The notes under the pieces were generated by a model. It had not been told where the DNA came from and searched no databases. It saw only the letters and a list, made by a program, of their open reading frames with translations. A program made the translations under genes and the position numbers. Positions 1-39,872 of a stretch of 53,766 bases of DNA are shown here, one piece after another (the stretch's first letter is position 1; each line of letters begins with the position of its first letter). This DNA is from a virus (Duplodnaviria; Caudoviricetes): IMG/VR virus record IMGVR_UViG_3300018080_000225, positions 1 to 53,766 of that record; one strand, given 5' to 3'.

Positions 1-3000
1 ACCTAAATCAGTTTTTGTTTCATACTTCTTATTCCACCAAAACCGTTTTAATGGAGTAATCCATTTTGAGGGCTTTAGAATTTCATCATAATACATTAAC
101 CATGGACTGACCGCTTCTGGTGCTGAAATATTTTGAAATAAAGGTGTAGGCTCATAATTCATTTCTTCTTCAAACTTCTTGAGCTTTTCTACCAACTCAG
201 GTGGCCGTGGATCAATTACATCTTCTGGCTGATTCACAGGGCGTAAATTGCCTGTCAACCAAGATAATTCACTAATACTCTGTTCAAGATCAGCGATTAC
301 CGCACGAGGATGTGCAGCCTGCCCTTGATAAGTAAAATGCTCACTCATATACTTATGGAAATTTTCGCGAGATGCCTTAACTTCTCCTTGCATCAAGGCT
401 ACGTTATATTGTTTTTGTAAAGTAGCATATTGATTTTGTGCATTTTGTAACTGTGTCTGTTGTTGCGATATTTGTGCTTGTACATCTTCCGGTGTACGAA
501 GGTTATATGCTAATTGTAACTGACCCCCCCGTGCTTTCCAATAAGCCTGTTGCATCTCAGGGGTATTGTTCAACGTGTGGAGTACTTGCCCTAATTGAGT
601 AACATTCAATGGGCCATAAGGGCCATATAACACATTACTAGCCACTTCATCATAATGATCTTGTCGTTGTGATCGGAATTGGCTTATAGGCGCAGATGTA
701 CGACTCAAAGAAAATTGAGCCTTTTTCCACTTATCACGTAAGGTCATTTCACGTTCGGCCATACGTTGATAGTTATCCTGAAGAATATCATATGCGACTA
801 CAGGATCACCACCGAAATGTCTTAACCACTCTTCCCATTCTGCCCATCGTGATGCATTATCTCGACTAACTACATATTCACCTTCTTGAAGTATGGCTGG
901 TACTTCTCCACCTGTTTGCATGTGTTTAACCCAACCACCATCATGAAACACTTTAGCGGGCGTACCTGCTGCTCGTTGTTGTTCCATTAATAATTTGTTC
1001 TGACGTGCATTTTCCTTAGCTAAAGCTAATTCCGGGCGTCCTGACTCAATATATTCTTTCTGTTCTCGCATCACAGTAAGAATATCAGTTAACAAACGTA
1101 AAGATTCTTGTGCTGCTTTATCATCGGCTACTTGACTGCTTGAGAGAGATCGCTCAAGATTTTGACCTAATGCTAATGTTTCTTCTACCACCCGTGGGAA
1201 CTCAGATTCCAATAGAGCAAGTCGCTCAGCTGAATCTTCACCTGTAGCCAAATAAGTTGCTGCTAACTTATCAATTTGCTTTTCAAGCCCAAAAACTTCT
1301 TGAAAAATCGGAGATGTAGTATCACGATCCGATATCAAGGTTGCTAACGTACGCATCTGACCAAGCATCTGAGGTAATTGCGTTTTATCTACAAAAGTTG
1401 TAAATAAAGCTTGATATGCAGCTGTTGTACCTTGAGTTACTTCTTGTCGTGTATTAATCTGTTCTTTCTCTATACGATCAAGTTCAGCAGCTAATCCCAT
1501 AGCTTCCCTGAGCTTATCACCTTGTTGACCTAATAGAGTTAACTCAACTGCGCGTTGTCCATTCTTTGCCCGTAATAATGATACTAAGCGTTCTTCACTC
1601 TTAATATTATCATCAAGTTGCTTTCCAACAAATTTACTTAATTCACCATAAGTCTTTACTTCCTGATTAAGAGCATTAAGCTGACTACGCAATGCAGGAA
1701 GTTCTGTTTCTTGTATCTCTTGTTGACGTGCGCGGTACGCCTGTGCAAATTGGCGTAGACGTGCCTGGCGTTCAAGATCAATGCGTACAGGTTGGAAGTC
1801 TCCAAGCTCTGTTACAGCAGTTCGACGTGCATCAGTTATTTGCTTCATGTATTCATCAAATAACTTAGTGGCTTGTTTCAAATCATCTGCTGTTGTGGCA
1901 GTTGTTACCTGCTGAATGGATTGAGAGAATAATTGAGCTGCACTACGCATTTCAATGTCAAAGCGATCAAAAGGTGTAGCTAATGGGCTTGACTTTGCCT
2001 CTTCAATACGCTGCACTTGGTACTTACGCTCTAAATCCGCTAGATATTTTTCCGTGTCTCTGCCTGCTTTTTCAAGATCAGCAATACGCTTCTTCAAAGC
2101 ATCACGTTGATCCTCAAGCGTCTGCTTATTGATTTCCATAAGCTCTTTTGCTTCAGCACGCTTTTCGTCTAACTGACTTTGAATAAGAATCTTTTCGCGT
2201 TCTTGGAATTCAGACAATTCGGAAATACGCTCGCGATGGTACTTCTGCACGTCTTGAATTAAGGTACCATTAATGATATTGAGATCTTTTACAACCTCTT
2301 CGGAATCCTTCTTTGCTCCTTCCATAACTTTATCAAGCGAACCAATTCCACGAATTACGGCATTCAAACCTAAGCTAATCGAACCTATTGCTGTAACTAA
2401 TCCACCGAAACGCCATACAAATTTCGGAATTGCAGATTCAACAGCAAATGCTTGCGCAACCAGGCGCGTAAATGTTACCCCCAATAAGCCATATGTTGCT
2501 GGTGCTAAGGCCGCACCACTGACATCACCTACAGATACCCCACCTATCATTTCTAAGCCTTTACTGATGGTAGCTAATACATCTTCAGCCATCATCATAT
2601 GACTCTGAAATACATTACGAACTTTGTTTGCTTCCTCAGTAATCATGAAGCCTGTTGTTTGTGTAACCAGACCAATAGACTTAAAATAACTTTCCGTTGC
2701 TTCTGCTGTTTTTGAAATATTAACTTCAACAGTATCAATATTCGAGATTAATCCAGCAAACCCTGTAGTACCTCGAATATCATGGATGTACTCAGACAAC
2801 TCGCCAAGATCACCGCTTGTCGCTTGTAATAATCGACGAATAACTCCTGATAGGCCGTACATTTGAATAGCCATTTGTCCAGACGTTACACCCCAATCCT
2901 CAAATAATGTCTTGAGTTGGGCAGATGGCTTCATTAACTTATTAATAACGTTGATAATGAAAGTGCTTGCACGATCAAAACGTAGACCACTGATCGTGAA

Positions 3001-5076
3001 CTGCTGAATCATTGTTAAGTATTCTTCAAATGATACACCAGCCTGATTAGCTAAAACTGCGGAACGTCCCATTGTATCTGCCATATCTTCTGCACGTACA
3101 CGACCCAATTCAATAGTTTTGAATAGTTGTGCCGCTATAAGACTGGCTTCGGACGCTGGTTTTTGGAACGCATTCAATGCTGACGATAACAGATTGATTG
3201 AATCAGTGATTGAAGAAGCTGTAGCATGAGAAAATTCTCCTGCTGTTTTCATGAAATCAACTGCACGTTGCCCTTGTGCAATCTGATTTGATGTAATTTG
3301 ATATAAGCCTTCTACAACATCTGTTTGTAATACATTATATTCATCCGATACTTCTTTGATTGCATCTCGCCAATCATTGTAAGTCATCGGCATTTCTTGA
3401 GAAATCGTTTGGACTTCACCAATTGCTCGGGATAAGTCTAATGTCGTGCTAACATTTGATCTTACTGCATTTGTAAAATTATAAAAGGCAGCAGTCAATG
3501 CACGAGCAAACACTAATTGACCAAAACGCTGCCACTTACGAGTAGTATTATCCACAGCCATACTTGCACGTTCACTAGCTGCTTCCATTTGATTAAAGAC
3601 ATTTACCATGTCTTTATTTGACTCAGTTACTTGAAGAGTACCTGCGCGGTACTTTTGCCATTCCCCTTCAAGATTATCGACATTAATCCCTGCTTTATGC
3701 ACACTACGTGCAAGATTCTCAAAAGAATCACGTAAAATTTGTTGTTGTCGTGGTTGTAGCTTAGACAAAGCTCTACCGCTCCGAAGAATACGTACAAATG
3801 CCGCTTCAAGTCTATCGGCTGTTTGACGTAATTCAGGTGCTAAAGCTGCTCTACCTGTGGCCTTTTCCATAGCTTCATCGAACTTCAACATTGTGCTCGT
3901 TAATTTATCCATCGGATTTAACGGGCCTTCTGCTTCCTTCCGAATAACTGCTAATGTACCTGACAACCCTTCTAAGCTATGGTCGCTCTTTGCTGTAGCC
4001 TCGGATAATTGATCGATCTGCTCATAAAGCACACGTTGCTGCTGAATAGGTAATGCACTAATTAATTCTTGATAAGACCCACGTAAAGCATTTGTTACTT
4101 GTGTTTGTCTTGTTTGAATACGGGAGGCTTCATTAGTTACATCATTTTCTTTTTGTTGCTTACTTAATACTGTATCAATACCCTTAATACGGGTTTGCAT
4201 TTCCTTTTGTTCGGCTGCATTTAGCTCTGCACTTGTTTCTACTCCCATCTGTTTTGCAATAAATAAAGTCTGTAAGGCTGCTCTGAATCTCTGTGCTGCT
4301 TCAATTTGTGCTTCATTGAAAGGCGCGTCAACTGTTGCCGCTGGCTCTGTTGGTAATGGTACTTGAGCCGCACGTTCAGCTTGAATAGCTGCTGCTACAG
4401 CTTCAGCATTCTTTAAGCGCTGTTCATAAGCTTTTTGTTCTACTACATTTTGCTCTTTTCTAACTTCTGTTGATTGATCAATTGCTAAAATTAAGCCGAG
4501 TAATTCTTTTTTATGTTCACCTACTGCTTTTGCTTCTTCTGTTGTAAAAGGTATTGCCGCCTCAATTGGTTTCTTAGGATCACGAGTTGTCACTGATGTC
4601 TGTGCGATTTCTTGATGCGCTTTTTTAACATCTTCTACAAAATTCCGTCGGAATGTGTCAACTTTCTTATTTACAGCATCAAGTATCTTACCTGTTTTCT
4701 GTGCCAAACGATCATCTAGCTTATCAAGCTCTTTTGGAATAATTGGAATTTTCTGAACTTGTTTGCCCGCAGTTTCAAGTTTCTTAATTTCCCCCTGCAT
4801 ATTACCAAGAACACGTTGCGCGTTCTGAAAACGCTTATTTAGTGCATCTGATGGTCCTTCAACTGCAATCGCAGTTGCTTTGGCTGATTGCACCATAATC
4901 TTGGCATAAGCAGAACATACATTCCCCAACCCCGTCATTACTTTAGCCAATTGACGCTGTTGTGCTGTAGCAACAGTAGATGCCGCATTGAAGGCATTCA
5001 TTTCTTGCGTCAATTGACGTAACGGTTGTTCATAACCGCTGGTATCTAGGGATACACTTATACTTTCATCTGCCAT
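1..5076 (-). CDS. Tail tape measure protein, 3' end beyond window (at least 1692 aa)
   Basis: Not in the ORF track because no stop falls in the window. ATG at 5076 (MADESISVSLDTSG) overlaps the upstream TAA (TAATG) and the frame is open at position 1 (...KKYETKTDLG); spot-checked, not every codon. TP901-like core near 2700-3450 (ALNAFQKPASEASLIAAQLFKTIELGRVRAEDMADTMG). C-terminal HDGG...QTGGEVPAILQEGEYVV motif near 880-950. Confidence 0.9.
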   Translation of the reverse strand, partial: MADESISVSLDTSGYEQPLRQLTQEMNAFNAASTVATAQQRQLAKVMTGLGNVCSAYAKIMVQSAKATAIAVEGPSDALNKRFQNAQRVLGNMQGEIKKLETAGKQVQKIPIIPKELDKLDDRLAQKTGKILDAVNKKVDTFRRNFVEDVKKAHQEIAQTSVTTRDPKKPIEAAIPFTTEEAKAVGEHKKELLGLILAIDQSTEVRKEQNVVEQKAYEQRLKNAEAVAAAIQAERAAQVPLPTEPAATVDAPFNEAQIEAAQRFRAALQTLFIAKQMGVETSAELNAAEQKEMQTRIKGIDTVLSKQQKENDVTNEASRIQTRQTQVTNALRGSYQELISALPIQQQRVLYEQIDQLSEATAKSDHSLEGLSGTLAVIRKEAEGPLNPMDKLTSTMLKFDEAMEKATGRAALAPELRQTADRLEAAFVRILRSGRALSKLQPRQQQILRDSFENLARSVHKAGINVDNLEGEWQKYRAGTLQVTESNKDMVNVFNQMEAASERASMAVDNTTRKWQRFGQLVFARALTAAFYNFTNAVRSNVSTTLDLSRAIGEVQTISQEMPMTYNDWRDAIKEVSDEYNVLQTDVVEGLYQITSNQIAQGQRAVDFMKTAGEFSHATASSITDSINLLSSALNAFQKPASEASLIAAQLFKTIELGRVRAEDMADTMGRSAVLANQAGVSFEEYLTMIQQFTISGLRFDRASTFIINVINKLMKPSAQLKTLFEDWGVTSGQMAIQMYGLSGVIRRLLQATSGDLGELSEYIHDIRGTTGFAGLISNIDTVEVNISKTAEATESYFKSIGLVTQTTGFMITEEANKVRNVFQSHMMMAEDVLATISKGLEMIGGVSVGDVSGAALAPATYGLLGVTFTRLVAQAFAVESAIPKFVWRFGGLVTAIGSISLGLNAVIRGIGSLDKVMEGAKKDSEEVVKDLNIINGTLIQDVQKYHRERISELSEFQEREKILIQSQLDEKRAEAKELMEINKQTLEDQRDALKKRIADLEKAGRDTEKYLADLERKYQVQRIEEAKSSPLATPFDRFDIEMRSAAQLFSQSIQQVTTATTADDLKQATKLFDEYMKQITDARRTAVTELGDFQPVRIDLERQARLRQFAQAYRARQQEIQETELPALRSQLNALNQEVKTYGELSKFVGKQLDDNIKSEERLVSLLRAKNGQRAVELTLLGQQGDKLREAMGLAAELDRIEKEQINTRQEVTQGTTAAYQALFTTFVDKTQLPQMLGQMRTLATLISDRDTTSPIFQEVFGLEKQIDKLAATYLATGEDSAERLALLESEFPRVVEETLALGQNLERSLSSSQVADDKAAQESLRLLTDILTVMREQKEYIESGRPELALAKENARQNKLLMEQQRAAGTPAKVFHDGGWVKHMQTGGEVPAILQEGEYVVSRDNASRWAEWEEWLRHFGGDPVVAYDILQDNYQRMAEREMTLRDKWKKAQFSLSRTSAPISQFRSQRQDHYDEVASNVLYGPYGPLNVTQLGQVLHTLNNTPEMQQAYWKARGGQLQLAYNLRTPEDVQAQISQQQTQLQNAQNQYATLQKQYNVALMQGEVKASRENFHKYMSEHFTYQGQAAHPRAVIADLEQSISELSWLTGNLRPVNQPEDVIDPRPPELVEKLKKFEEEMNYEPTPLFQNISAPEAVSPWLMYYDEILKPSKWITPLKRFWWNKKYETKTDLG

Positions 5077-18297: not shown

Positions 18298-18849
18298 TTA
18301 ACTCTCCTCTTCCGATGGATTTTGCATGATCGTCTCGAACTGTTGTGCGATTTGCTCTATCGCATCGGGGTCCTTGACGTACTGTATCACCACATTGAAA
18401 AACGCTTGAGCCATGGCAATTACCTGACCAAGCGATAATAGATCATTCATATGCTTTTCGAGCTTCATGTTACTTGTCAAAGTCTTATCGATACTTGAGA
18501 TCAAATTACTGATCGCGGCGCTATTGGTAACTAGCTCGAAATTATCCGTGCACTTATTAATCAATGTTTCCAAAGTCATACGGAGCACACCTAACTCAGT
18601 TGTTAATTTCATCGAATCGGGATGTGATCGGAATGCTTCAAGGCGGTGTAGAACTTCGGTACGCGAAAACTGATAGAGCGTTTCGTCATTGTTCTTACGC
18701 ACCGAATGATTCCCATGGATCGGACAATATTGGGTCGGTGGTACAGCGAGAAATGGGCATTGGCCATTTTCAGTTGAGCCTTGACACCGATTTGGGTCAT
18801 TCTCTTTGCACCTTACAGGCGTATATTTGTGATCTTGTTGCACAGACAA
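18298..18849 (-). CDS. Probable terminase small subunit
   Basis: RCQG...GQC...YCPIHG Cys/His motif and L..ELGVLR helix; first gene of the packaging operon; TTG start after AAGGA. Confidence 0.65.
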   Translation of the reverse strand: MSVQQDHKYTPVRCKENDPNRCQGSTENGQCPFLAVPPTQYCPIHGNHSVRKNNDETLYQFSRTEVLHRLEAFRSHPDSMKLTTELGVLRMTLETLINKCTDNFELVTNSAAISNLISSIDKTLTSNMKLEKHMNDLLSLGQVIAMAQAFFNVVIQYVKDPDAIEQIAQQFETIMQNPSEEES

Positions 18850-18961: not shown

Positions 18962-19071
18962 TCTACTACTTACTACTACAATTCATTTTGAGGTTATTAC
19001 CCCTAAGCCCTATTTCAGATTTTCTATTAGGGGTACAAACCCTAAAATGAATTGTAGTAGTAAGTAGTAGA
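18962..19071. repeat. Long inverted repeat, 45 bp arms (41/45), 20 nt spacer
   Basis: TCTACTACTTACTACTACAATTCATTTT (28 bp perfect) at 18962; reverse-complement arm at 19027-19071. Confidence 0.95.
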
Positions 19072-19521: not shown

Positions 19522-20721
19522 CTATTTCTCGGATTTGGGAGCGGTCGTGCGGCTTCCTTTGCCTCGGCCTTTCAATTTCTTTCCTGCCTCGGCGGGGGTA
19601 ATTGTCTTCGGGGAATCATTCGCGGCCATAGCTTCAGCTGCACGTGCGGCGATGTCTGCCTCCTGGGCTTCGATATCTTCGGCGCTGGCAAGGCTAGTAA
19701 CATTTGGTCGTCTCAAAGCTGGGATCTGTTCGCGTGCGTTCGTCAAGAAGTCAAACGCGGTCATTTTTTCGCCGTTATGGTGTCGGGCGCATTCGATAAG
19801 GGCGGTTGCAAGGTCGATCTCTGCTTGCGGGTTCAACGTGTGGCCGATGGCATAGTGGATTGCATTAAAAACGGCGTCTTGAGCGGCTTGCAATTCCTCG
19901 CCAACTCGCAAGCGGGCTGCACGATTTTGTGGCGGGGCTGCTGGCGGTGTGTTGTCTTCTTCTTCGTCGGCCTTGGGCGCTTCTTCGGCCTTGGGCGCTT
20001 CTTCTTCGGCTGCGGGCGGGGCGGGAAGTGCGAACCGTTCACGCATAAAATCTGATACTTTCAACTTTGCGTCGTTACCTGTCGAAAATTTCAAGCGCAT
20101 TTCGGCCAAGAGATCCGAAAGTTTTGACTCGCCCTCGGTCAACTTGATAATGCCGACGCCTCCAAGATTCTTGGTTGCGTTGCGATTGTGGGCCTTGATG
20201 CTGCCTATGAGCGCGTCAACCGCGTCCAACCATACGTAGCGTTTGGCGTGCGCATCTTTTGTCCAATACTCGCGATCAACCGTGATGCCGAGCGCGATGG
20301 CGCGGTCCATTGTGCGTGCCGCGTCGTACACTTGTCGAATGCCGGGGATCAGGCTTCCTGATAGGGCGGTTGCGTCGATTTTCTCAACCCCGTACTTGAG
20401 GCAGTTGCGATCCGTATTCAGGGCAGCGATCAGGTGACTCTGAACCGTATCCTTGCTTGCGGTGTCCTGCTGCTGTCTCTTGTCAACGGCTAGCATAAGT
20501 ACATTCCAGGACGTCGCTTCGTTCTGTGCGACGCCTTGCATGTAGTCTTCCGCGTAACGGCGTGCTTGGGCGTCTTTCTCCGCTTGCGTTTTGTCAAGCA
20601 GTGCGACATTGACTGCACCTTCAAAAATCATGGCGGTGTCTGTTTCGGCCATGGTCAAGGCGGTTGTCTCTACAGTTGTTAGTGTGGTTTCGGGCGTGTT
20701 CTTTTTTTCATTCATGTTCAT
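19522..20721 (-). CDS. Hypothetical Ala-rich early protein
   Basis: 399 aa, AAGGA RBS, GC-rich, EEAPKA repeat, basic C-terminal tail. Confidence 0.75.
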   Translation of the reverse strand: MNMNEKKNTPETTLTTVETTALTMAETDTAMIFEGAVNVALLDKTQAEKDAQARRYAEDYMQGVAQNEATSWNVLMLAVDKRQQQDTASKDTVQSHLIAALNTDRNCLKYGVEKIDATALSGSLIPGIRQVYDAARTMDRAIALGITVDREYWTKDAHAKRYVWLDAVDALIGSIKAHNRNATKNLGGVGIIKLTEGESKLSDLLAEMRLKFSTGNDAKLKVSDFMRERFALPAPPAAEEEAPKAEEAPKADEEEDNTPPAAPPQNRAARLRVGEELQAAQDAVFNAIHYAIGHTLNPQAEIDLATALIECARHHNGEKMTAFDFLTNAREQIPALRRPNVTSLASAEDIEAQEADIAARAAEAMAANDSPKTITPAEAGKKLKGRGKGSRTTAPKSEK

Positions 20722-25744: not shown

Positions 25745-26416
25745 TTAACGTTCCTCCGGGGTCAGATATGCGATACCAAGTTTTGCGAACACTTTTTCTT
25801 CGGTATCAGGCCAAAATGGTTCACGCGATCCATCGGCATGGAACAATCCGTGTTCATTCATCTTCCAACCGAGATCACGAGCATGTTTTCTCATCATGAT
25901 ATTGGTGTCTTTGGAGCCGGTACGATACAATAGATACCAGATCCAATCGTCTTCATCATCCACACGGCTCACGTCAAATGGTACGCCGTTATATACACCC
26001 CGGACCTGAATCTCGCCTTGCGACTGAATAACAATATTCGAGTGTACTTGTAATCTTACAAGAAATTTGTGGGTCCACCAATCCAATGGGGCTTGGACGA
26101 TAATGTCAATGTCTTTAGAATCGGATTTACCACGACGGAATGACCCTACAATTTCGGCCTTGCGTTCTCCTTGAACCAAGATACCTAATAGCGCTGGACC
26201 AAGCGATGCAATCGTGGAGCGTGGAAAGCGTTTGGGTGGAGTATAATCAAGATCCATCCGAATATGCCGACAATCCTGACGATATTTGTAACCGGGACAA
26301 GAGCAACGGAGGCCACCACCACGTTTCTCGACGATACGATATTGATTTCCCTCAGATGACGTGACATACCACTCATTCAAGTCACCTATACGGGTGATCT
26401 TATATGGGGCACTCAT
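25745..26416 (-). CDS. SWIM zinc finger fused to a minimal family X DNA polymerase
   Basis: CSCPG......CRH (SWIM); GSFRRGK..SKDIDI, FDV, YRTGS..N..MR..A...G.KMNEHGL and EE.VF..LG..YL.PEER (PolX palm/thumb). Confidence 0.85.
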   Translation of the reverse strand: MSAPYKITRIGDLNEWYVTSSEGNQYRIVEKRGGGLRCSCPGYKYRQDCRHIRMDLDYTPPKRFPRSTIASLGPALLGILVQGERKAEIVGSFRRGKSDSKDIDIIVQAPLDWWTHKFLVRLQVHSNIVIQSQGEIQVRGVYNGVPFDVSRVDDEDDWIWYLLYRTGSKDTNIMMRKHARDLGWKMNEHGLFHADGSREPFWPDTEEKVFAKLGIAYLTPEER

Positions 26417-32964: not shown

Positions 32965-32993
32965 ATTATATCAAATTTAGAGGCTTATGTCAA
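32965..32993 (-). promoter_or_regulatory. Consensus sigma70 promoter
   Basis: TTGACA-17-TATAAT with TGn. Confidence 0.8.
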
Positions 32994-34269
32994 GTATTAC
33001 TTTGTCACCAAAATCTGGGCCATATGATTTATACTTCACTGGTATATTCAAGCCTTGTTCAAGAGCAAAGCACATATCATTTTCATCAAAGATATCATGA
33101 ATATAGATCGGTTCGACATTATTCATAAGATCTTTTGTTAATTGTGCTTGAGTTTCAAGGTCTGGTTCTTCACCAGGAAGTAAAATACCGTATTGCTCAC
33201 CGGTATCTTTTTGCTTATAACCTCCACAAATTTGGAGAGCTTGATGCTGGAAAATATCAAGGTGTGTAACCGCAAGATAGTGAAATGGTGCTTCATAATT
33301 GGCGGCCATAACAGCATATTTCCATAAGACAAGATCAGGCCATCCGAACCGGAAGTGCTGTTGCCATTTATTACTACAATTCACTTCATGTGGGTGAAAG
33401 ATATTTTCTGGTTTTGTTTCAGTAACCAAGGGTCCAGCCCCATGTCTTGTCATATATGATCTTACTACCCCCATAATCTCTACATTACCATAGAGGCTAG
33501 GTATACTTTCATTGATCACATCGGCTACATTTGTAGGGATAATTGTAGACCAAGTTGTATATGGATGGAAGCCATACCATTCATCTAAAAGCACTCCTTG
33601 AGCACCCTCAAAAATAACGGAGCCATCGATTGTAGGTTTTGCAATTTGTAGAGCCGATGCAATTTTAGAATAATTTTTCGCAAGATTTGCTGGCTCTTTT
33701 GAGTCAGAGAATCTTTGATAAGGTGTAACGTCAACACCCATGGAGCGACATTCTTGGAGCCTATGTTCTTGGATTCGGTGTAATTTGTCTTCACAATAGT
33801 TAAGTTCCCAAGCACGAATTACGCTTCCTGAACTATTTACAAGATCAGAACCAAGCTCACCAATGCCTTTACCACAAGATCCATGGCGATTTTTGCCACG
33901 ATGCATCTCTTTAGCTCGATTAGCCCATACATGAAAAGGTGTGATAATAGGAGTATCAGGATCAATCCAAATTTTATCTAAAGGTTTGCTTACACCTTTT
34001 TCTTGGAGTATGGTTGCCTCTTCTATGAGACTGATTGGGTTGAATAATACATGCCTGGAAAGATATGTTTTAACATTTGGCCGTTGTGATCCTGAACCAA
34101 ATTGTGAAAAGCAATGTTTGAATTCCCCATTTTTAACATTATGCCCGCATTGTGCCCCACCATTATAACGGATGACCCAATTTGTTTCACGTTCATGCAC
34201 CAAAAAATCGGTCATGGTGCCTTTACCAGAATCACCAAAACCAAGGTCAATTACTACGATCCCATCCAT
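32977..34269 (-). CDS. Adenylosuccinate synthetase-like protein (divergent PurA family)
   Basis: Start MDGIVVID at 34269 (AAGGAG). GFGDSGKG, RYNGGAQCGHNV, HGSCGKGIG, FEGAQGVLLD, HPYTT, YMTRHGAGP, RFGWPD and THLD motifs. Confidence 0.88.
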   Translation of the reverse strand: MDGIVVIDLGFGDSGKGTMTDFLVHERETNWVIRYNGGAQCGHNVKNGEFKHCFSQFGSGSQRPNVKTYLSRHVLFNPISLIEEATILQEKGVSKPLDKIWIDPDTPIITPFHVWANRAKEMHRGKNRHGSCGKGIGELGSDLVNSSGSVIRAWELNYCEDKLHRIQEHRLQECRSMGVDVTPYQRFSDSKEPANLAKNYSKIASALQIAKPTIDGSVIFEGAQGVLLDEWYGFHPYTTWSTIIPTNVADVINESIPSLYGNVEIMGVVRSYMTRHGAGPLVTETKPENIFHPHEVNCSNKWQQHFRFGWPDLVLWKYAVMAANYEAPFHYLAVTHLDIFQHQALQICGGYKQKDTGEQYGILLPGEEPDLETQAQLTKDLMNNVEPIYIHDIFDENDMCFALEQGLNIPVKYKSYGPDFGDKVILDISL

Positions 34270-34364
34270 TACATGTCTCCTTTTAGAGTGTGGGTGGGCC
34301 AGAGGAAGGGAAGAACCCTGACCCACCCTAGGCGCTCGATGAGGGTCGAGCAAACCTTGTAAAA

Positions 34365-36296: not shown

Positions 36297-37369
36297 GTTG
36301 ACATCTCCAATGGTTCAAATTGCGGCTTACCGAATACTTGTTTTTGGACCTCACGAAATGTAATCGAAGCACCCATTGCAGTGAATGGGCGGAATCTACG
36401 TTTTGGTTGAATACAATGATGTAAGAACTCAACAATTGGCTCTTCAAGCTCAAGACAAAAGTAATCGCCTCGTGCAAGAGACAAAAGACATTTTGCCGCT
36501 GCATAAATATCACAAGAAGGTAAGCAAATATGATTTTTCGTTGCTTCTGGTGCAAGAAAATCTTTATTACCTATATAGAGCATTGGCTTATCTGCATTTG
36601 TCCAATCGATTACTTGACCAAGATGCTTTTCGGCATGGATAATCACATGATGTGGGGTTACACAATTATGTGATATTTTTTGACTGTGAGCGATGGACAA
36701 TGACTCGAATATACGATTACCAATGAAACAGATTTGACGGGAATTAAGGCCATTGGGATGTGCTTTTGTAATTTGTTCAAGGTTGTACCAACCTGACTCA
36801 TAACCAGGTGGTTGAACAAATACGATCATTTTCTTCCCATTCTTATGTCGAATTGTTTCCAAGATTTTTGGTAATAACAATTGCATGTTAGCACCTTCCA
36901 TCTGAGGGAATGGCTTGAGAGCTTCGGTAAAGATTTTCAAGGTTTGAATTTCACGTTCGAGAAGATCATTGTCCGCTTTGGAATGAGGAATCTTAACTAT
37001 GCCAGAAACGTAGCAGTCACGTTTCTTTTCATAGATCTTAGTTGAGAATACACCACAAGTTTGACCTGTATGGATTTGCTCAAGATCATGATACTCATAG
37101 CGACGTGTCTCGAAAGATTGTATTTTGACAGGTTCATCTGTTTGCCAAGTACCCTTAGCAAATTTCCTTTTGGCAATATCCCAAAGATCATTCAATTTTG
37201 CTGAAGCTTGATGAGCAAGTTCGGGATTATCTGGATTGCGATCAGGATGTATCTGTTTTTGAATACGATGATACCAAGGACGTGCTTCATCTTCTGTATT
37301 TCCAAGGAATACGCTTTCTGGCTTATTACATTCCAGAAGAAGTTTGGCAGTAAGCTCAAGCTCAGTCAT
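36293..37369 (-). CDS. J-domain fused to an atypical protein kinase-like domain
   Basis: HPD motif (QIHPDRNPD); IVKIP...LLERE; catalytic loop SHNCVTPHHV without Asp; IDW in place of DFG; LAPE; DIYAAA. Confidence 0.8.
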   Translation of the reverse strand: MTELELTAKLLLECNKPESVFLGNTEDEARPWYHRIQKQIHPDRNPDNPELAHQASAKLNDLWDIAKRKFAKGTWQTDEPVKIQSFETRRYEYHDLEQIHTGQTCGVFSTKIYEKKRDCYVSGIVKIPHSKADNDLLEREIQTLKIFTEALKPFPQMEGANMQLLLPKILETIRHKNGKKMIVFVQPPGYESGWYNLEQITKAHPNGLNSRQICFIGNRIFESLSIAHSQKISHNCVTPHHVIIHAEKHLGQVIDWTNADKPMLYIGNKDFLAPEATKNHICLPSCDIYAAAKCLLSLARGDYFCLELEEPIVEFLHHCIQPKRRFRPFTAMGASITFREVQKQVFGKPQFEPLEMST

Positions 37370-37676
37370 GTTTGGTCCCTTTTAACTGTTCAAGTAGCAG
37401 TTTGATCATATCTTTGTCAAGCTGACCGAGCTTTTGTCCCAATTGTGCAGCATTGTCAAGCTCATAAAATTCTGCATATGTTGTGATATTGCTCCAACAA
37501 AATGCATGTACTCGAAGTCTTTTATGCTTGATACGAATATTGACAAAATCCGATATATCTTCAAGCGTAGAAAAAGCTGCCATAATATGTGACAGAAAAA
37601 CGATATGAGCTTGATTCATATCAACGTCAGTTACTTTATTTGAGCAAAAAGTCATATCTTAATCCATAGTCCCCAT
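37362..37676 (-). pseudogene. Hypothetical gene with early in-frame TAA; may restart at ATG 37655
   Basis: Coupled ATG at 37676 reads MGTMD*DMTFCS; TAA at 37659-37661. Confidence 0.4.
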
Positions 37677-37781: not shown

Positions 37782-37872
37782 TTGCCTATGGTTTGCTAAG
37801 CAAACCACAACGGGAATCGAACCCGTGACCTCGTCATTATCAGTGAAGTAACCCGATCAACCGCATAGGCAA
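37782..37872 (-). ncRNA. Truncated copy of the YrlA-like RNA, lacking the D-arm
   Basis: 37787-37873 is identical to 38222-38308 over 87 bp. Confidence 0.65.
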
Positions 37873-37875
37873 TGA

Positions 37876-37985
37876 TCTTGTGTTTTATACTGCGGTAACT
37901 AGAATGGCTAGGTCCATTTCATAATCCTAGCGTTCGGTCGCGACATCATGGATCAATCATTGTTACCGCAGTATAAAACACAAGA
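37876..37985. repeat. Perfect 24 bp inverted repeat enclosing 62 nt
   Basis: TCTTGTGTTTTATACTGCGGTAAC / GTTACCGCAGTATAAAACACAAGA; internal GCTAGG/CCTAGC hairpin. Confidence 0.95.
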
Positions 37986-37986
37986 G

Positions 37987-38068
37987 TAGGCGAGGAGGGA
38001 CTTGAACCCTCAAGCCGCAAGAGCAGCGGATTTTAAGTCCGCCGTGTATTCCATTCCACCACTCGCCC
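37987..38068 (-). tRNA. tRNA-Leu(TAA)
   Basis: Acceptor GGGCGAG/CTCGCCT, anticodon arm GCGGA-CTTAAAA-TCCGC, long variable arm, GAGGG-TTCAAGT-CCCTC T-arm; CCA not encoded. Confidence 0.95.
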
Positions 38069-38080
38069 TTACTCAGTTAA

Positions 38081-38164
38081 TCCCTATGATCATAAAGGTC
38101 AGGAAGTGTGGCACAAGGCCACGTTATCAACCAAAATGAAGTATCCCAACCACCCGCATAGGGA
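38081..38164 (-). ncRNA. Short Y RNA-like gene without a tRNA-like domain
   Basis: TCCCTATG-CGG...GGGATACTTC...CCTGACC...AT-CATAGGGA; same terminal stem and TACTTC motif as the adjacent full copy. Confidence 0.6.
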
Positions 38165-38171
38165 AGACTTA

Positions 38172-38306
38172 TGCCTATGATTAAATAACCAGGAAATTTT
38201 CGCGCTCTACCCACTGAGCTATATGGTTTGCTAAGCAAACCACAACGGGAATCGAACCCGTGACCTCGTCATTATCAGTGAAGTAACCCGATCAACCGCA
38301 TAGGCA
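38172..38306 (-). ncRNA. YrlA-like Y RNA (circularly permuted tRNA mimic)
   Basis: 5' TGCCTATG pairs with 3' CATAGGCA; GGGTTACTTC; then TCA-CTGATAA-TGA loop, GAGGTC, T-arm ACGGG-TTCGATT-CCCGT, closed acceptor-like hairpin TGTGGTTTGC-TTA-GCAAACCATA, and D-arm TAGCTC-AGTGGGTA-GAGC. Confidence 0.8.
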
Positions 38307-38322
38307 ATTCTTTATTCAACTG

Positions 38323-38667
38323 TCAAATAGCTTCGCAAAATTGGGTCTCAGCTATTGCCAAAACCGCCCTATGTAGGGCATGGTCAACAGGGTTTTCAAG
38401 TGCTTGATCTCGACTTACGATCACGCGCTCTTTTGCCTTGATTAACCAAATCTGACAATTGACAAGCTCATCAACCAAATATGCATCCCATTGGCCTATA
38501 TGACCAATGAATCTATATGGCTCCACTTCCGGTGGATCAAATCGAGGACCAAATACACGGCCACTCAATGTAATTTCACGACGACGGAGCCATTGAATGC
38601 GCTTATGGAGCTTTGTCACACTCTCCTTCATTTTCATCTCCCATTGCCTGTCGAATGCTTCATCCAT
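38323..38667 (-). CDS. Hypothetical protein
   Basis: AAGGAG RBS; 114 aa. Confidence 0.6.
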   Translation of the reverse strand: MDEAFDRQWEMKMKESVTKLHKRIQWLRRREITLSGRVFGPRFDPPEVEPYRFIGHIGQWDAYLVDELVNCQIWLIKAKERVIVSRDQALENPVDHALHRAVLAIAETQFCEAI

Positions 38668-38729: not shown

Positions 38730-39872
38730 TTATTCAACGACCGGTGCTTCCGAGGCGTGTTCGGCATTGATCGCATGGACCACTTCCCAGAACTTGTCGG
38801 GATCGTGGGCCTTGGCTTGCTCGATCATGAGCAATTCGTCTTCGAGATCCGGCAACGCGGCTTGTGCCGCCTGATCGCCCAGGGCCGCATCCAATTGTTT
38901 GCCGAGGTAGAAAGACTTGTTCGTCGTCTTGGCGGATTCCAAGATCGGTTTGGTCCAGTGCTTCGACGTTTCTTTTGAACTCGTATTGCCGCGCAATTTG
39001 GCCGCTAAATACTGCTTAGCATCTTCTTCACGCATACCATGCAGTTCTTCGGCCATCTTGAACGTGATATCAACGCCACCTTCGAGGCCACGGACTTTGC
39101 GACGGAATGCCTCTTCTACGCAAGGTGCAGACTCGAAAATGCGTTGGTACTTCTGGAATCGGCCGCGGAACATCGCCATGGCTACGTCTTCCCACGAACG
39201 GCACGTCTGCTTACCCTTGAGCGTGTAGCCCTTTTCGCGCAGTTCCTTGAGAGAAAGATCATATGTCGCACGATCCTTGGCACCAGCCAAACGGTAGTAC
39301 AACCGGGCCAGCATCGAGATCATCGCCTTTTGCGAATACAGACCCTTCTGTCGCATGAGGCGTTTCTGTGAGAGGTAGACCTCGTACTCGTCCAATTCCT
39401 CTTCGGAGCCATGATCCAGCAGGATCGCGAGGCGGTCACGTTCCGTGATCCCGTCATGGCTGACGAACGGCACCTTGTCCTTGAAATGCTCGTTGTAGAA
39501 ATCGGGAGTACGCATTGCGATCTGACGCAACGCCGCTGATCGTAGGAACCCGCATACGCCGATGCGCTTCTCTTCTTCCTTCATGCTCACGAGCCGTGCG
39601 ACAACGAGCGGTGTCCGAATCGCCTTGTCTCGTGTGAGTTCTAGAATCTTGCGTTCCACAGCCGCTTCATAGTTGCCCGTATCGCGAACGTTAAACGCGG
39701 GGTCAAAGTTGAAGTTGTGGATATCATCCAGAAATACGTTGTTCGTATCGATGCCTTCCAAGTGAGCATCATCTTCCGGCGTCCACGGCGCAGGTTCCTT
39801 GAACTCTTCTTTCTTTTTCTTCTTCTGCTCGGTTTCACTTGTACTTGTTACAACTTCTTGCTGGTCACTCAT
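38730..39872 (-). CDS. ParB/Srx-like N-terminal domain protein
   Basis: DPAFNVR, IRTPLVV and GFLRSAA (GxxRxxA) motifs; AAGGAG RBS. Confidence 0.6.
   Translation of the reverse strand: MSDQQEVVTSTSETEQKKKKKEEFKEPAPWTPEDDAHLEGIDTNNVFLDDIHNFNFDPAFNVRDTGNYEAAVERKILELTRDKAIRTPLVVARLVSMKEEEKRIGVCGFLRSAALRQIAMRTPDFYNEHFKDKVPFVSHDGITERDRLAILLDHGSEEELDEYEVYLSQKRLMRQKGLYSQKAMISMLARLYYRLAGAKDRATYDLSLKELREKGYTLKGKQTCRSWEDVAMAMFRGRFQKYQRIFESAPCVEEAFRRKVRGLEGGVDITFKMAEELHGMREEDAKQYLAAKLRGNTSSKETSKHWTKPILESAKTTNKSFYLGKQLDAALGDQAAQAALPDLEDELLMIEQAKAHDPDKFWEVVHAINAEHASEAPVVE

Follow-up and report, generated by a model that had tools for sequence, protein, structure and literature searches.

An array of Y RNA-like units without an adjacent Ro60 gene in a tailed phage probably descends from the arrays that adjoin phage Ro60 genes

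Introduction

Y RNAs are modular adaptors that set what the Ro60 ring protein acts on. Bacteria carry at least two of them, one of which is tRNA-like; a GNCGAAN0-1G core has been proposed as the Ro60 contact, and enzymes that act on tRNAs accept the tRNA-like YrlA RNAs as substrates (Chen et al. 2014, PMC4201824). In the YrlA and YrlB RNAs of Salmonella Typhimurium and Mycobacterium smegmatis, a long stem is formed from the two ends of the molecule, one RNA carries a permuted tRNA-like domain, the second is shorter, lacks that domain and bears a small loop rich in pyrimidines, and the two genes are adjacent, their processing from one precursor being a feature of M. smegmatis (PMC4201824). Among phages, the Thermus phage phiLo encodes the tandem Y RNA-like genes Yrl1 and Yrl2 upstream of its own Ro60 gene, where they were identified by their CGAA motifs. 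The phiLo Ro60 binds both RNAs and joins the host PNPase, single substitutions in the CGAA motif raise the dissociation constant (Kd) 3-4 fold, and the stem-bulge-stem design of the RNAs is proposed to let the phage use the host PNPase; phages that carry Y RNAs are thought to take over host RNA decay (PMC12135203).

Here we describe an array of about 530 bases in a tailed phage from IMG/VR (record IMGVR_UViG_3300018080_000225; linear, ~62% complete by CheckV). The array is encoded on the minus strand at positions 37,782-38,306 of the 53,766 bases of that record, hereafter the window, meaning the whole stretch of DNA that was analyzed. It runs in the order unit A, unit B, tRNA-Leu(UAA), a 24-bp hairpin and unit E, with spacers of 0-12 nt (7 nt between A and B, 12 nt between B and the tRNA, 0 between the tRNA and the hairpin). 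A reading made from the sequence alone had listed these five elements, and its order, strand and coordinates are correct for every one of them. As in YrlA and YrlB, a long stem is built from two ends, one RNA has a permuted tRNA-like domain, a shorter one, a candidate YrlB-type RNA, has a small pyrimidine-rich loop, and the genes are adjacent; the tandem arrangement recalls that of phiLo, to which the array is likened here by description. Unlike the YrlA/YrlB pairs, unit A stands at 35.9 bits where the Rfam YrlA model sets 69, the units hold no GNCGAAN0-1G core, the window has no Ro60 gene, and interleaved in the array are a tRNA, a hairpin with a 24-bp stem and a truncated copy of A; unlike phiLo, the array has neither an adjacent Ro60 gene nor a CGAA motif.

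Results

Unit A (38,172-38,306, minus strand) is a tRNA-mimic RNA of the YrlA type. Its terminal stem (UGCCUAUG/CAUAGGCA) is continued by a second stem (UGAUCGGG/CCUGGUUA) and a UACUUC motif, beyond which lies a permuted tRNA-like domain composed of a variable-loop-like GAGGUC, a T arm, a 10-bp acceptor-like hairpin with a UUA loop, and a D arm. The T arm, the acceptor-like stem, the D arm and the long end-to-end stem are the features by which Chen et al. recognize the YrlA domain. Against the Rfam YrlA model (RF02553) unit A scores 35.9 bits (E-value 6.6e-6 in a 1.1-kb search), which is below the gathering score of 69. The covariance model R1, built as described below from relatives only, matches it over its full length (model positions 1-136, spanning 38,308-38,170) at 79.6 bits (E 8.3e-19), with 29 of 33 pairs standard and 4 marked non-standard, and this score falls inside the range of 25-130 bits obtained for the units of Ro60-linked arrays (103 matches). 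The full-length R1 score within the family range, together with a Rfam YrlA score like that of the relatives, places unit A in a phage branch of the YrlA class. Folded as single sequences, the units give modest z-scores (-3.43 for A, -2.01 for B and -2.31 for E); the case draws its strength from homologues. As a whole, the array adds a new member to the Y RNA class already known.

Unit B (38,081-38,164, minus strand; 84 nt) was delimited by repeat family D2 and its fold, and it has in common with unit A the 5' side CCUAUGCGG...GGG(U/A)UACUUCA and the 3' side UUCCUG...AUCAUAGG (D2: 79% identity over 34 nt). In place of the tRNA domain, its distal module is a 5-bp hairpin with the pyrimidine-rich loop CUUGU, which bears out the earlier description of an 84-nt variant with the same terminal stem and TACTTC motif and a simple hairpin. 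Directly 3' of stem 2 stands the motif GUUACUUC in A and E and GAUACUUC in B. Unit B, with the handle of A, a CUUGU loop on its distal stem and a weak match to the family model (13.2 bits), appears to be a YrlB-type paralogue of unit A with the same two-stem handle. Between A and B two pairs have changed on both sides and three on one side, with pairing kept throughout: the terminal stem shows one G-C to C-G swap, while stem 2 shows one A-U to G-C swap and the three one-sided changes and has lost its outermost pair. The two units are under structural constraint. Moreover, because these compensatory changes preserve both stems of a derived handle that A and B have in common, they argue for selection after the handle had changed.

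Relatives of the array were sought with a loose motif pattern taken from the parts common to A and B, which returned at least 120 stretches, mostly by chance. Comparison of the array with the pattern-derived pieces by blastn singled out locus L094 in a 65.7-kb, 100%-complete phage record (G001), which carries several RNAs with the words GGGUUACUUCA..AUGACGAG and GCGAAAAUUUCC. An open reading frame (ORF) that begins ~30 nt past the last of these RNAs matches TROVE at 67.1 bits (cut-off 23) and vWA_Ro60 at 34.4 bits (cut-off 27.7), which makes it a phage Ro60. Within its first 20 kb, the G001 record yields no tRNA call by ARAGORN. When the G001 Ro60 protein was used to fetch 23 IMG/VR loci, 22 of them proved to carry one to six copies of GNTACTTC at most 1 kb upstream of Ro60 and on its strand; across those 22 loci, 63 such sites lie upstream of Ro60 against 14 elsewhere on either strand. 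The exception is L151, where the Ro60 match is a partial one of 49 residues.

An independent route, from RNA to protein, gave the same association. A 24-nt RNA word of the tRNA-mimic units is present in 3 viral loci (one of them on a known contig) and 15 metagenome loci, and in 0 of 185,579 species genomes. At 15 of the 17 new loci (2 viral, 15 metagenomic) a Ro60 homologue was detected by tblastn. Regarding the two misses, the contig of L158 stops 280 nt past the match and its near-twin L162 has the gene, and on one side of L160 there are only 312 nt. Several contigs form near-identical pairs (L135/L136, L153/L167, L156/L166, L157/L169, L163/L168 and L158/L162), so that the independent lineages are fewer than the loci. 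Taken over its extent, the branch comprises ~40 phage or metagenome loci (L129-L169) with 1-6 GNUACUUC units each beside Ro60. The supplemental tables of Chen et al. reportedly hold 22 phage hits, which may overlap the phage branch seen here.

Other searches returned no close relative of the array itself. A blastn search of INPHARED with the array matched isolated phages in its tRNA-Leu part only, among the 80 records listed; megablast with 20 kb of the record returned nothing; no relative was confirmed in IMG/VR contigs through the 380-aa ORF or a kinase-like ORF of the window; and no YrlA at gathering score was found in six loci that have a PurZ-like gene 34-38% identical to that of the window. 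A pattern of the window's own handle had 0 matches in IMG/VR contigs, and its 9 matches in genome contigs, none confirmed by R1 or R2, are taken as chance. The window contains 13 GNTACTTC sites where 4.7 are expected. Four of these, at 899-3,354 on the plus strand, were considered as RNA units and rejected, R1 and R2 finding nothing there; reading of the sequence suggests that they lie opposite a long minus-strand gene running off the start of the window.

The fold of the family was derived from the 63 sites, whose borders were set provisionally by script. Only units with clean borders were kept, namely 16 tRNA-mimic units (alignment A1) and 23 simple units (A2), aligned with plain MAFFT and with the window excluded; the 24 units dropped were those in which the stem search ran into a neighboring unit or which had another architecture. 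In A1, RNAalifold finds 33 pairs in five helices (the terminal stem with two GG/CC pairs, stem 2, the T arm, the acceptor-like hairpin and the D arm), and 27 of the 33 pairs show changes on both sides. The proportion of paired alignment cells is 94.9%, compared to 38.6-50.0% with slid partners and with 0 of 500 shuffles as high, and the covariation score is 0.774 compared to at most 0.14 in the control. The A2 alignment yields 18 pairs, 17 of them with changes on both sides, 90.3% paired cells (38.1-52.6% when slid) and a covariation score of 0.730 (at most 0.168). The structures were derived from the same alignments, which makes the slid control somewhat favorable, and the margin is large nevertheless. 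The sequence-only reading had proposed folding and covariation across related phages as its check, and the compensatory changes that it looked for in homologues are thus present. R1 is the covariance model built from A1, and R2 is the handle model built from A2.

The plan of a unit that emerges is a terminal stem, (U)GGYGNNG, a stem 2 ending in CGG, N-UACUUC and a variable distal module, followed on the 3' half by CCG with the 3' strand of stem 2, CGYUUGUUCC and the terminal stem. Within this plan, GG in the 5' motif and CC in the 3' motif form pairs that covary (AG/CU and GC/GC variants). The word GNUACUUC after stem 2 is invariant in all 16 and all 23 aligned relatives, and distal modules vary within one array, where they may be permuted tRNA domains, lone T arms, hairpins with a GNRA cap or plain loops. 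Unit A resembles the Ro60-linked GNUACUUC arrays (G001/L128 and L129-L169) in its full-length R1 match, in GNUACUUC after stem 2, in variable-loop and T-arm words, and in GCGAAAAUUUCC after the D arm; moreover, tRNAs are interspersed in some of those arrays (L141) as they are in the window. The Ro60-linked arrays differ from it in that they adjoin Ro60 and keep GGYGNNG ... RUUCC, whereas the window has UGCGG(U/G)U ... RAUCA.

On the tRNA-mimic units of seven relatives, the Rfam YrlA model scores 32.3-54.8 bits, in every case below 69. The Rfam model therefore misses a sizeable phage branch, and annotation pipelines that apply its threshold would miss it as well. Some Ro60-linked units show the opposite circular permutation (L128 7,766-8,380 in G001, and L134 3,686-3,812), in which the topology is that of a normal tRNA, an acceptor stem is open, D and T arms are present, and the anticodon arm is turned into a Y RNA handle with a CCGAAAGG-type loop. 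ARAGORN called no tRNA in these units of L128 and L134. One array mixes both permutations and simple hairpin units.

Unit E (37,782-37,872, minus strand) is a truncated copy of unit A, identified by an exact repeat (D1) and by a local R1 match of 31.4 bits over model positions 22-113. The two copies of the direct repeat, at 38,222-38,308 (covering the 5' part of A) and 37,787-37,873, are each 87 nt long and 100% identical, in keeping with the truncated duplicate listed in the earlier reading. Unit E retains the 5' strand of the handle, the UACUUC motif, the T arm and the acceptor-like hairpin; the D arm is missing from it, as are the 3' motif and the 3' strand of stem 2, and it closes on itself through UUGCCUAU/AUAGGCAA. 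Removal from A of 47 nt between two CAUA words, a segment that holds all three of these missing parts, gives E, and the four bases past the junction in E (GGCA) are again common to both. Most simply, unit E is a deletion derivative of a second copy of A. It looks like a product of deletion or recombination of A, not like a designed module swap. The proposal that one shared stem carries swapped distal modules is thus supported in part: it holds for A and B, and for the Ro60-linked loci in which the same handle carries varied modules, and probably does not extend to E. The 87-nt repeats would make the cassette unstable.

The tRNA-Leu (37,986-38,068, minus strand) has anticodon UAA, a long variable arm and no encoded CCA. 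It is called by ARAGORN and scores 57 bits against RF00005 (gathering score 29), in agreement with the tRNA-Leu(TAA) of the sequence-only reading, and among the matches listed, many isolated phages have a tRNA-Leu gene that is 78-84% identical to it.

The stem element is likewise as described earlier. It is a 110-nt hairpin (37,876-37,985, minus strand; inverted repeat I1) whose 24-bp arms are 100% complementary around a 62-nt interior, and it folds at -48.5 kcal/mol (z -9.3, with 0 of 200 shuffles as good). The hairpin starts at the base right after the CCA-less tRNA and stops one base short of the extended stem of unit E. No other copy of its arm is present in the window at up to 3 mismatches, comparison to Rfam returned no family beyond chance miRNA matches, and no look-alike was found in any fetched locus; in 22 related arrays there is no perfect stem of comparable length, the longest being a 16-bp stem in L150. 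By R2 with its filters off, the hairpin is not a Y unit. A perfect duplex of 24 bp is a substrate for RNase III, and our best guess, held with low confidence, is a role in processing or as a spacer. A DNA-level role is an alternative that also has to be kept in view, since the phage has a second, unrelated perfect inverted repeat with 28-bp arms. That repeat (18,962-19,071; 54 nt between the arms) has no sequence relation to the array hairpin and lies in a 670-nt gene-free gap between the ORFs at 18,298-18,849 and 19,522-20,721.

Nearly all genes of the record are on the minus strand, including those for terminase, portal, major head protein, family A DNA polymerase, a UvrD-type helicase, a sigma factor and an ATP-dependent DNA ligase. 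The array is flanked by a 114-codon ORF (38,323-38,667) and a 97-codon ORF (37,362-37,655), both also on the minus strand. A consensus scan predicted no promoter inside the array, where its sole terminator-like calls are the two T arms, and placed two weak promoter-like sites downstream of unit E. Among the public runs, none of RNA is listed as holding the array stretch, the single holder being a DNA run.

Other genes of the record may be mentioned in their own right. An adenylosuccinate synthetase homologue (32,977-34,353, minus strand) has the PurZ family phrog_1211 as its best PHROG match (E 1.2e-73), a Pfam Adenylsucc_synt domain (3.4e-60), and 36-37% identity to genes of Mycobacterium phages of the I3 group; a phage with such a gene may make 2-aminoadenine DNA. 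Two genes upstream of the array, a 380-aa ORF (38,730-39,872, minus strand) has no Pfam or PHROG match. It was considered as a Ro60 candidate and rejected, as it gives no meaningful alignment with G001 Ro60 (E 0.17); by eye, its N-terminal part bears a likeness to ParB-like domains. A 223-aa ORF (25,745-26,416, minus strand) has the palm and thumb domains of DNA polymerase beta (PF14792 and PF14791) and could be a PolX-type enzyme or a nucleotidyltransferase, for which a CCA-adding role on the CCA-less tRNA and the mimic is conceivable. The PD-(D/E)XK nucleases of the window phage and the G001 phage are not alike.

Discussion

What is the array, and what would it do? The explanation that we favor, and consider the probable one as a whole, is that the cluster belongs by descent to the phage Y RNA arrays that lie beside a Ro60 (Rsr/TROVE) gene. 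Among its units stands a real tRNA-Leu(UAA), and several related arrays likewise include tRNAs. With neither a promoter nor a terminator predicted inside it, the cluster would be read through from upstream genes as one precursor, which host tRNA-processing nucleases could then cut into separate RNAs, with the 24-bp hairpin abutting the 3' end of the tRNA serving as an element for double-strand (RNase III-type) cleavage or as a spacer. By analogy to the family, the mature Y RNAs may act as scaffolds: a ring protein of the Ro60 type would be bound by the stem, and a second factor, for instance the host exonuclease PNPase, would be brought in by the distal module, be it a loop or a tRNA mimic. 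The outcome, by the same analogy, would be that RNA decay is redirected in the infected cell.

Several observations weigh against this explanation. Under its default filters, the handle model R2 has no match anywhere in the window. With the filters off (901 nt), unit B is the top match, full length and in the expected place, at 13.2 bits (E 0.0055), and units A and E reach 11.1 bits each, compared to 26-72 bits for the units of relatives listed at E<=0.001, tRNA-mimic units included (96 matches, several of them from near-identical contig pairs). The GNCGAAN0-1G/CGAA motif is not found in the units of the window, where the aligned sequence is UGCGGUU in A and E and UGCGGGU in B; A has CGGU, and B has CGGG, in place of the CGAA-type motif. 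The 53.8-kb record contains no TROVE domain and no tblastn match to G001 Ro60, and there is no Ro60 (TROVE) gene within about 4 kb on the same strand, the arrangement applied by Chen et al.; as the record is ~62% complete, such a gene could lie elsewhere in the genome. Five records with a terminase 41-45% identical to that of the window (one of 82.8 kb and 80% complete, the other four small fragments) have neither TROVE nor an R1 match, a hint that the phage acquired the cassette by transfer and that Ro60 did not come with it.

The public run in which the stretch is found also speaks against it. That run, from sediment metagenome DNA, was searched as Logan contigs and contains 0.69 of the sampled words; it may be the record's own source. 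A 2,755-nt Logan contig at depth 7.5 joins position 37,786 to 38,222, skipping 435 nt and keeping one repeat copy, and the interior of the array is uncovered in that run save for tRNA pieces of 39-43 nt at 90-95% likeness, which are those of other organisms. The cassette is therefore absent from at least some genomes, or it was collapsed by the assembler. We infer that the skipped form is a real short form carrying only unit E, because a repeat of this kind should cause an assembler with k=31 to break instead of being bridged. Whether or not the run is the record's own source, the cassette is then not fixed.

In the handle, the family's GGYGNNG corresponds to UGCGG(U/G)U in the window, and (G/A)UUCC has become (A/G)AUCA, so that two GG/CC pairs of the handle became UG/CA with pairing kept. 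UACUUC and the top of stem 2, which make up the handle's distal half, are preserved, and the proximal half is rewritten alike in A and B. The proximal part, presumed to bind Ro60, is the most diverged part of the window's units. The idea of a protein-binding handle, as proposed from the sequence alone, draws support from the Ro60-linked family to which the handle belongs and is weakened by this divergence and by the absence of Ro60 from the record. With no adjacent Ro60 and the CGAA motif replaced, the partner would be a Ro60 whose gene lies in the part of the genome that the record lacks, the host Rsr, or something else.

One alternative is that the cassette is a decaying relic, acquired from a Ro60-bearing phage without Ro60, which has lost its partner and is now eroding, its binding motif having drifted. 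The lack of Ro60 in the record and among the terminase relatives, which are also without Y RNAs, would agree with this, as would proximal handle scores far below those of the family, the truncation of unit E, and the contig with 435 nt skipped; in this reading, recombination between the 87-nt repeats would delete most of the cassette. However, the T loop of unit A is textbook, its D arm and 10-bp acceptor-like stem are kept, and 29 of its 33 pairs are standard; A and B share a derived handle yet differ by compensatory changes; the tRNA-Leu is intact at 57 bits; and the complete identity of the 87-nt repeats indicates a recent duplication and not old decay. For these reasons we regard decay as unlikely.

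A second alternative is tRNA mimicry independent of Ro60, in which the RNAs would act as decoys or sponges for host proteins that handle tRNA (modification enzymes, RNase P, the CCA-adding enzyme or tRNA-cleaving defense nucleases) and the stem would provide stability or bind another partner. The orphan status of the array, the loss of CGAA and the inclusion of a true tRNA are in its favor, as is the finding that YrlA RNAs are substrates of tRNA enzymes (PMC4201824). Nevertheless, unit B, which has no tRNA-like part, keeps the handle and UACUUC, and this identifies the handle, not the mimic, as the conserved element. Moreover, the family is tied to Ro60 in 15 of 17 loci found by the RNA pattern and in 22 of 23 found through Ro60. 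We consider such mimicry improbable.

A third hypothesis is that the Y RNA scaffold has been re-targeted to another partner, either a host Rsr of other specificity or a non-Ro60 protein, while retaining its tRNA-mimic and UACUUC modules. The rationale for this hypothesis is that A and B share a rewritten handle and have kept both stems while no Ro60 is found in 53.8 kb, and we consider it likewise improbable. Finally, an assembly artefact, in which the duplicated 87 nt and the 348 nt between the copies were mis-joined from another strain, would be in keeping with an exact 87-nt repeat in a metagenome assembly and with the collapsed form in the sole public run, but it is very improbable given that the interior starts with the exact 3' continuation that completes unit A to a full-length family member and ends by running into the second repeat, that such a loop needs real reads joining hairpin to repeat, and that contigs drop rare variants, so that absence from Logan contigs is no proof of absence.

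Descent from the arrays beside phage Ro60 genes is thus the explanation that we retain. The idea of one handle with exchangeable modules is that of the published Y RNA model (PMC4201824, PMC12135203) and is not new, and the accepted picture of Y RNAs is unchanged. What is unusual here is the orphan state of the array, its rewritten proximal handle and its probable deletion polymorphism, and what is newly tied to the class is a large phage branch beside Ro60 that the Rfam model under-detects. An array that is parted from the Ro60 gene and has lost CGAA, and whose fold is kept, makes a convenient test, provided by nature, of where in the handle the choice of partner is specified. If the re-targeting hypothesis is true, the array would be an example from nature of a Y RNA handle that evolves specificity for a new protein.

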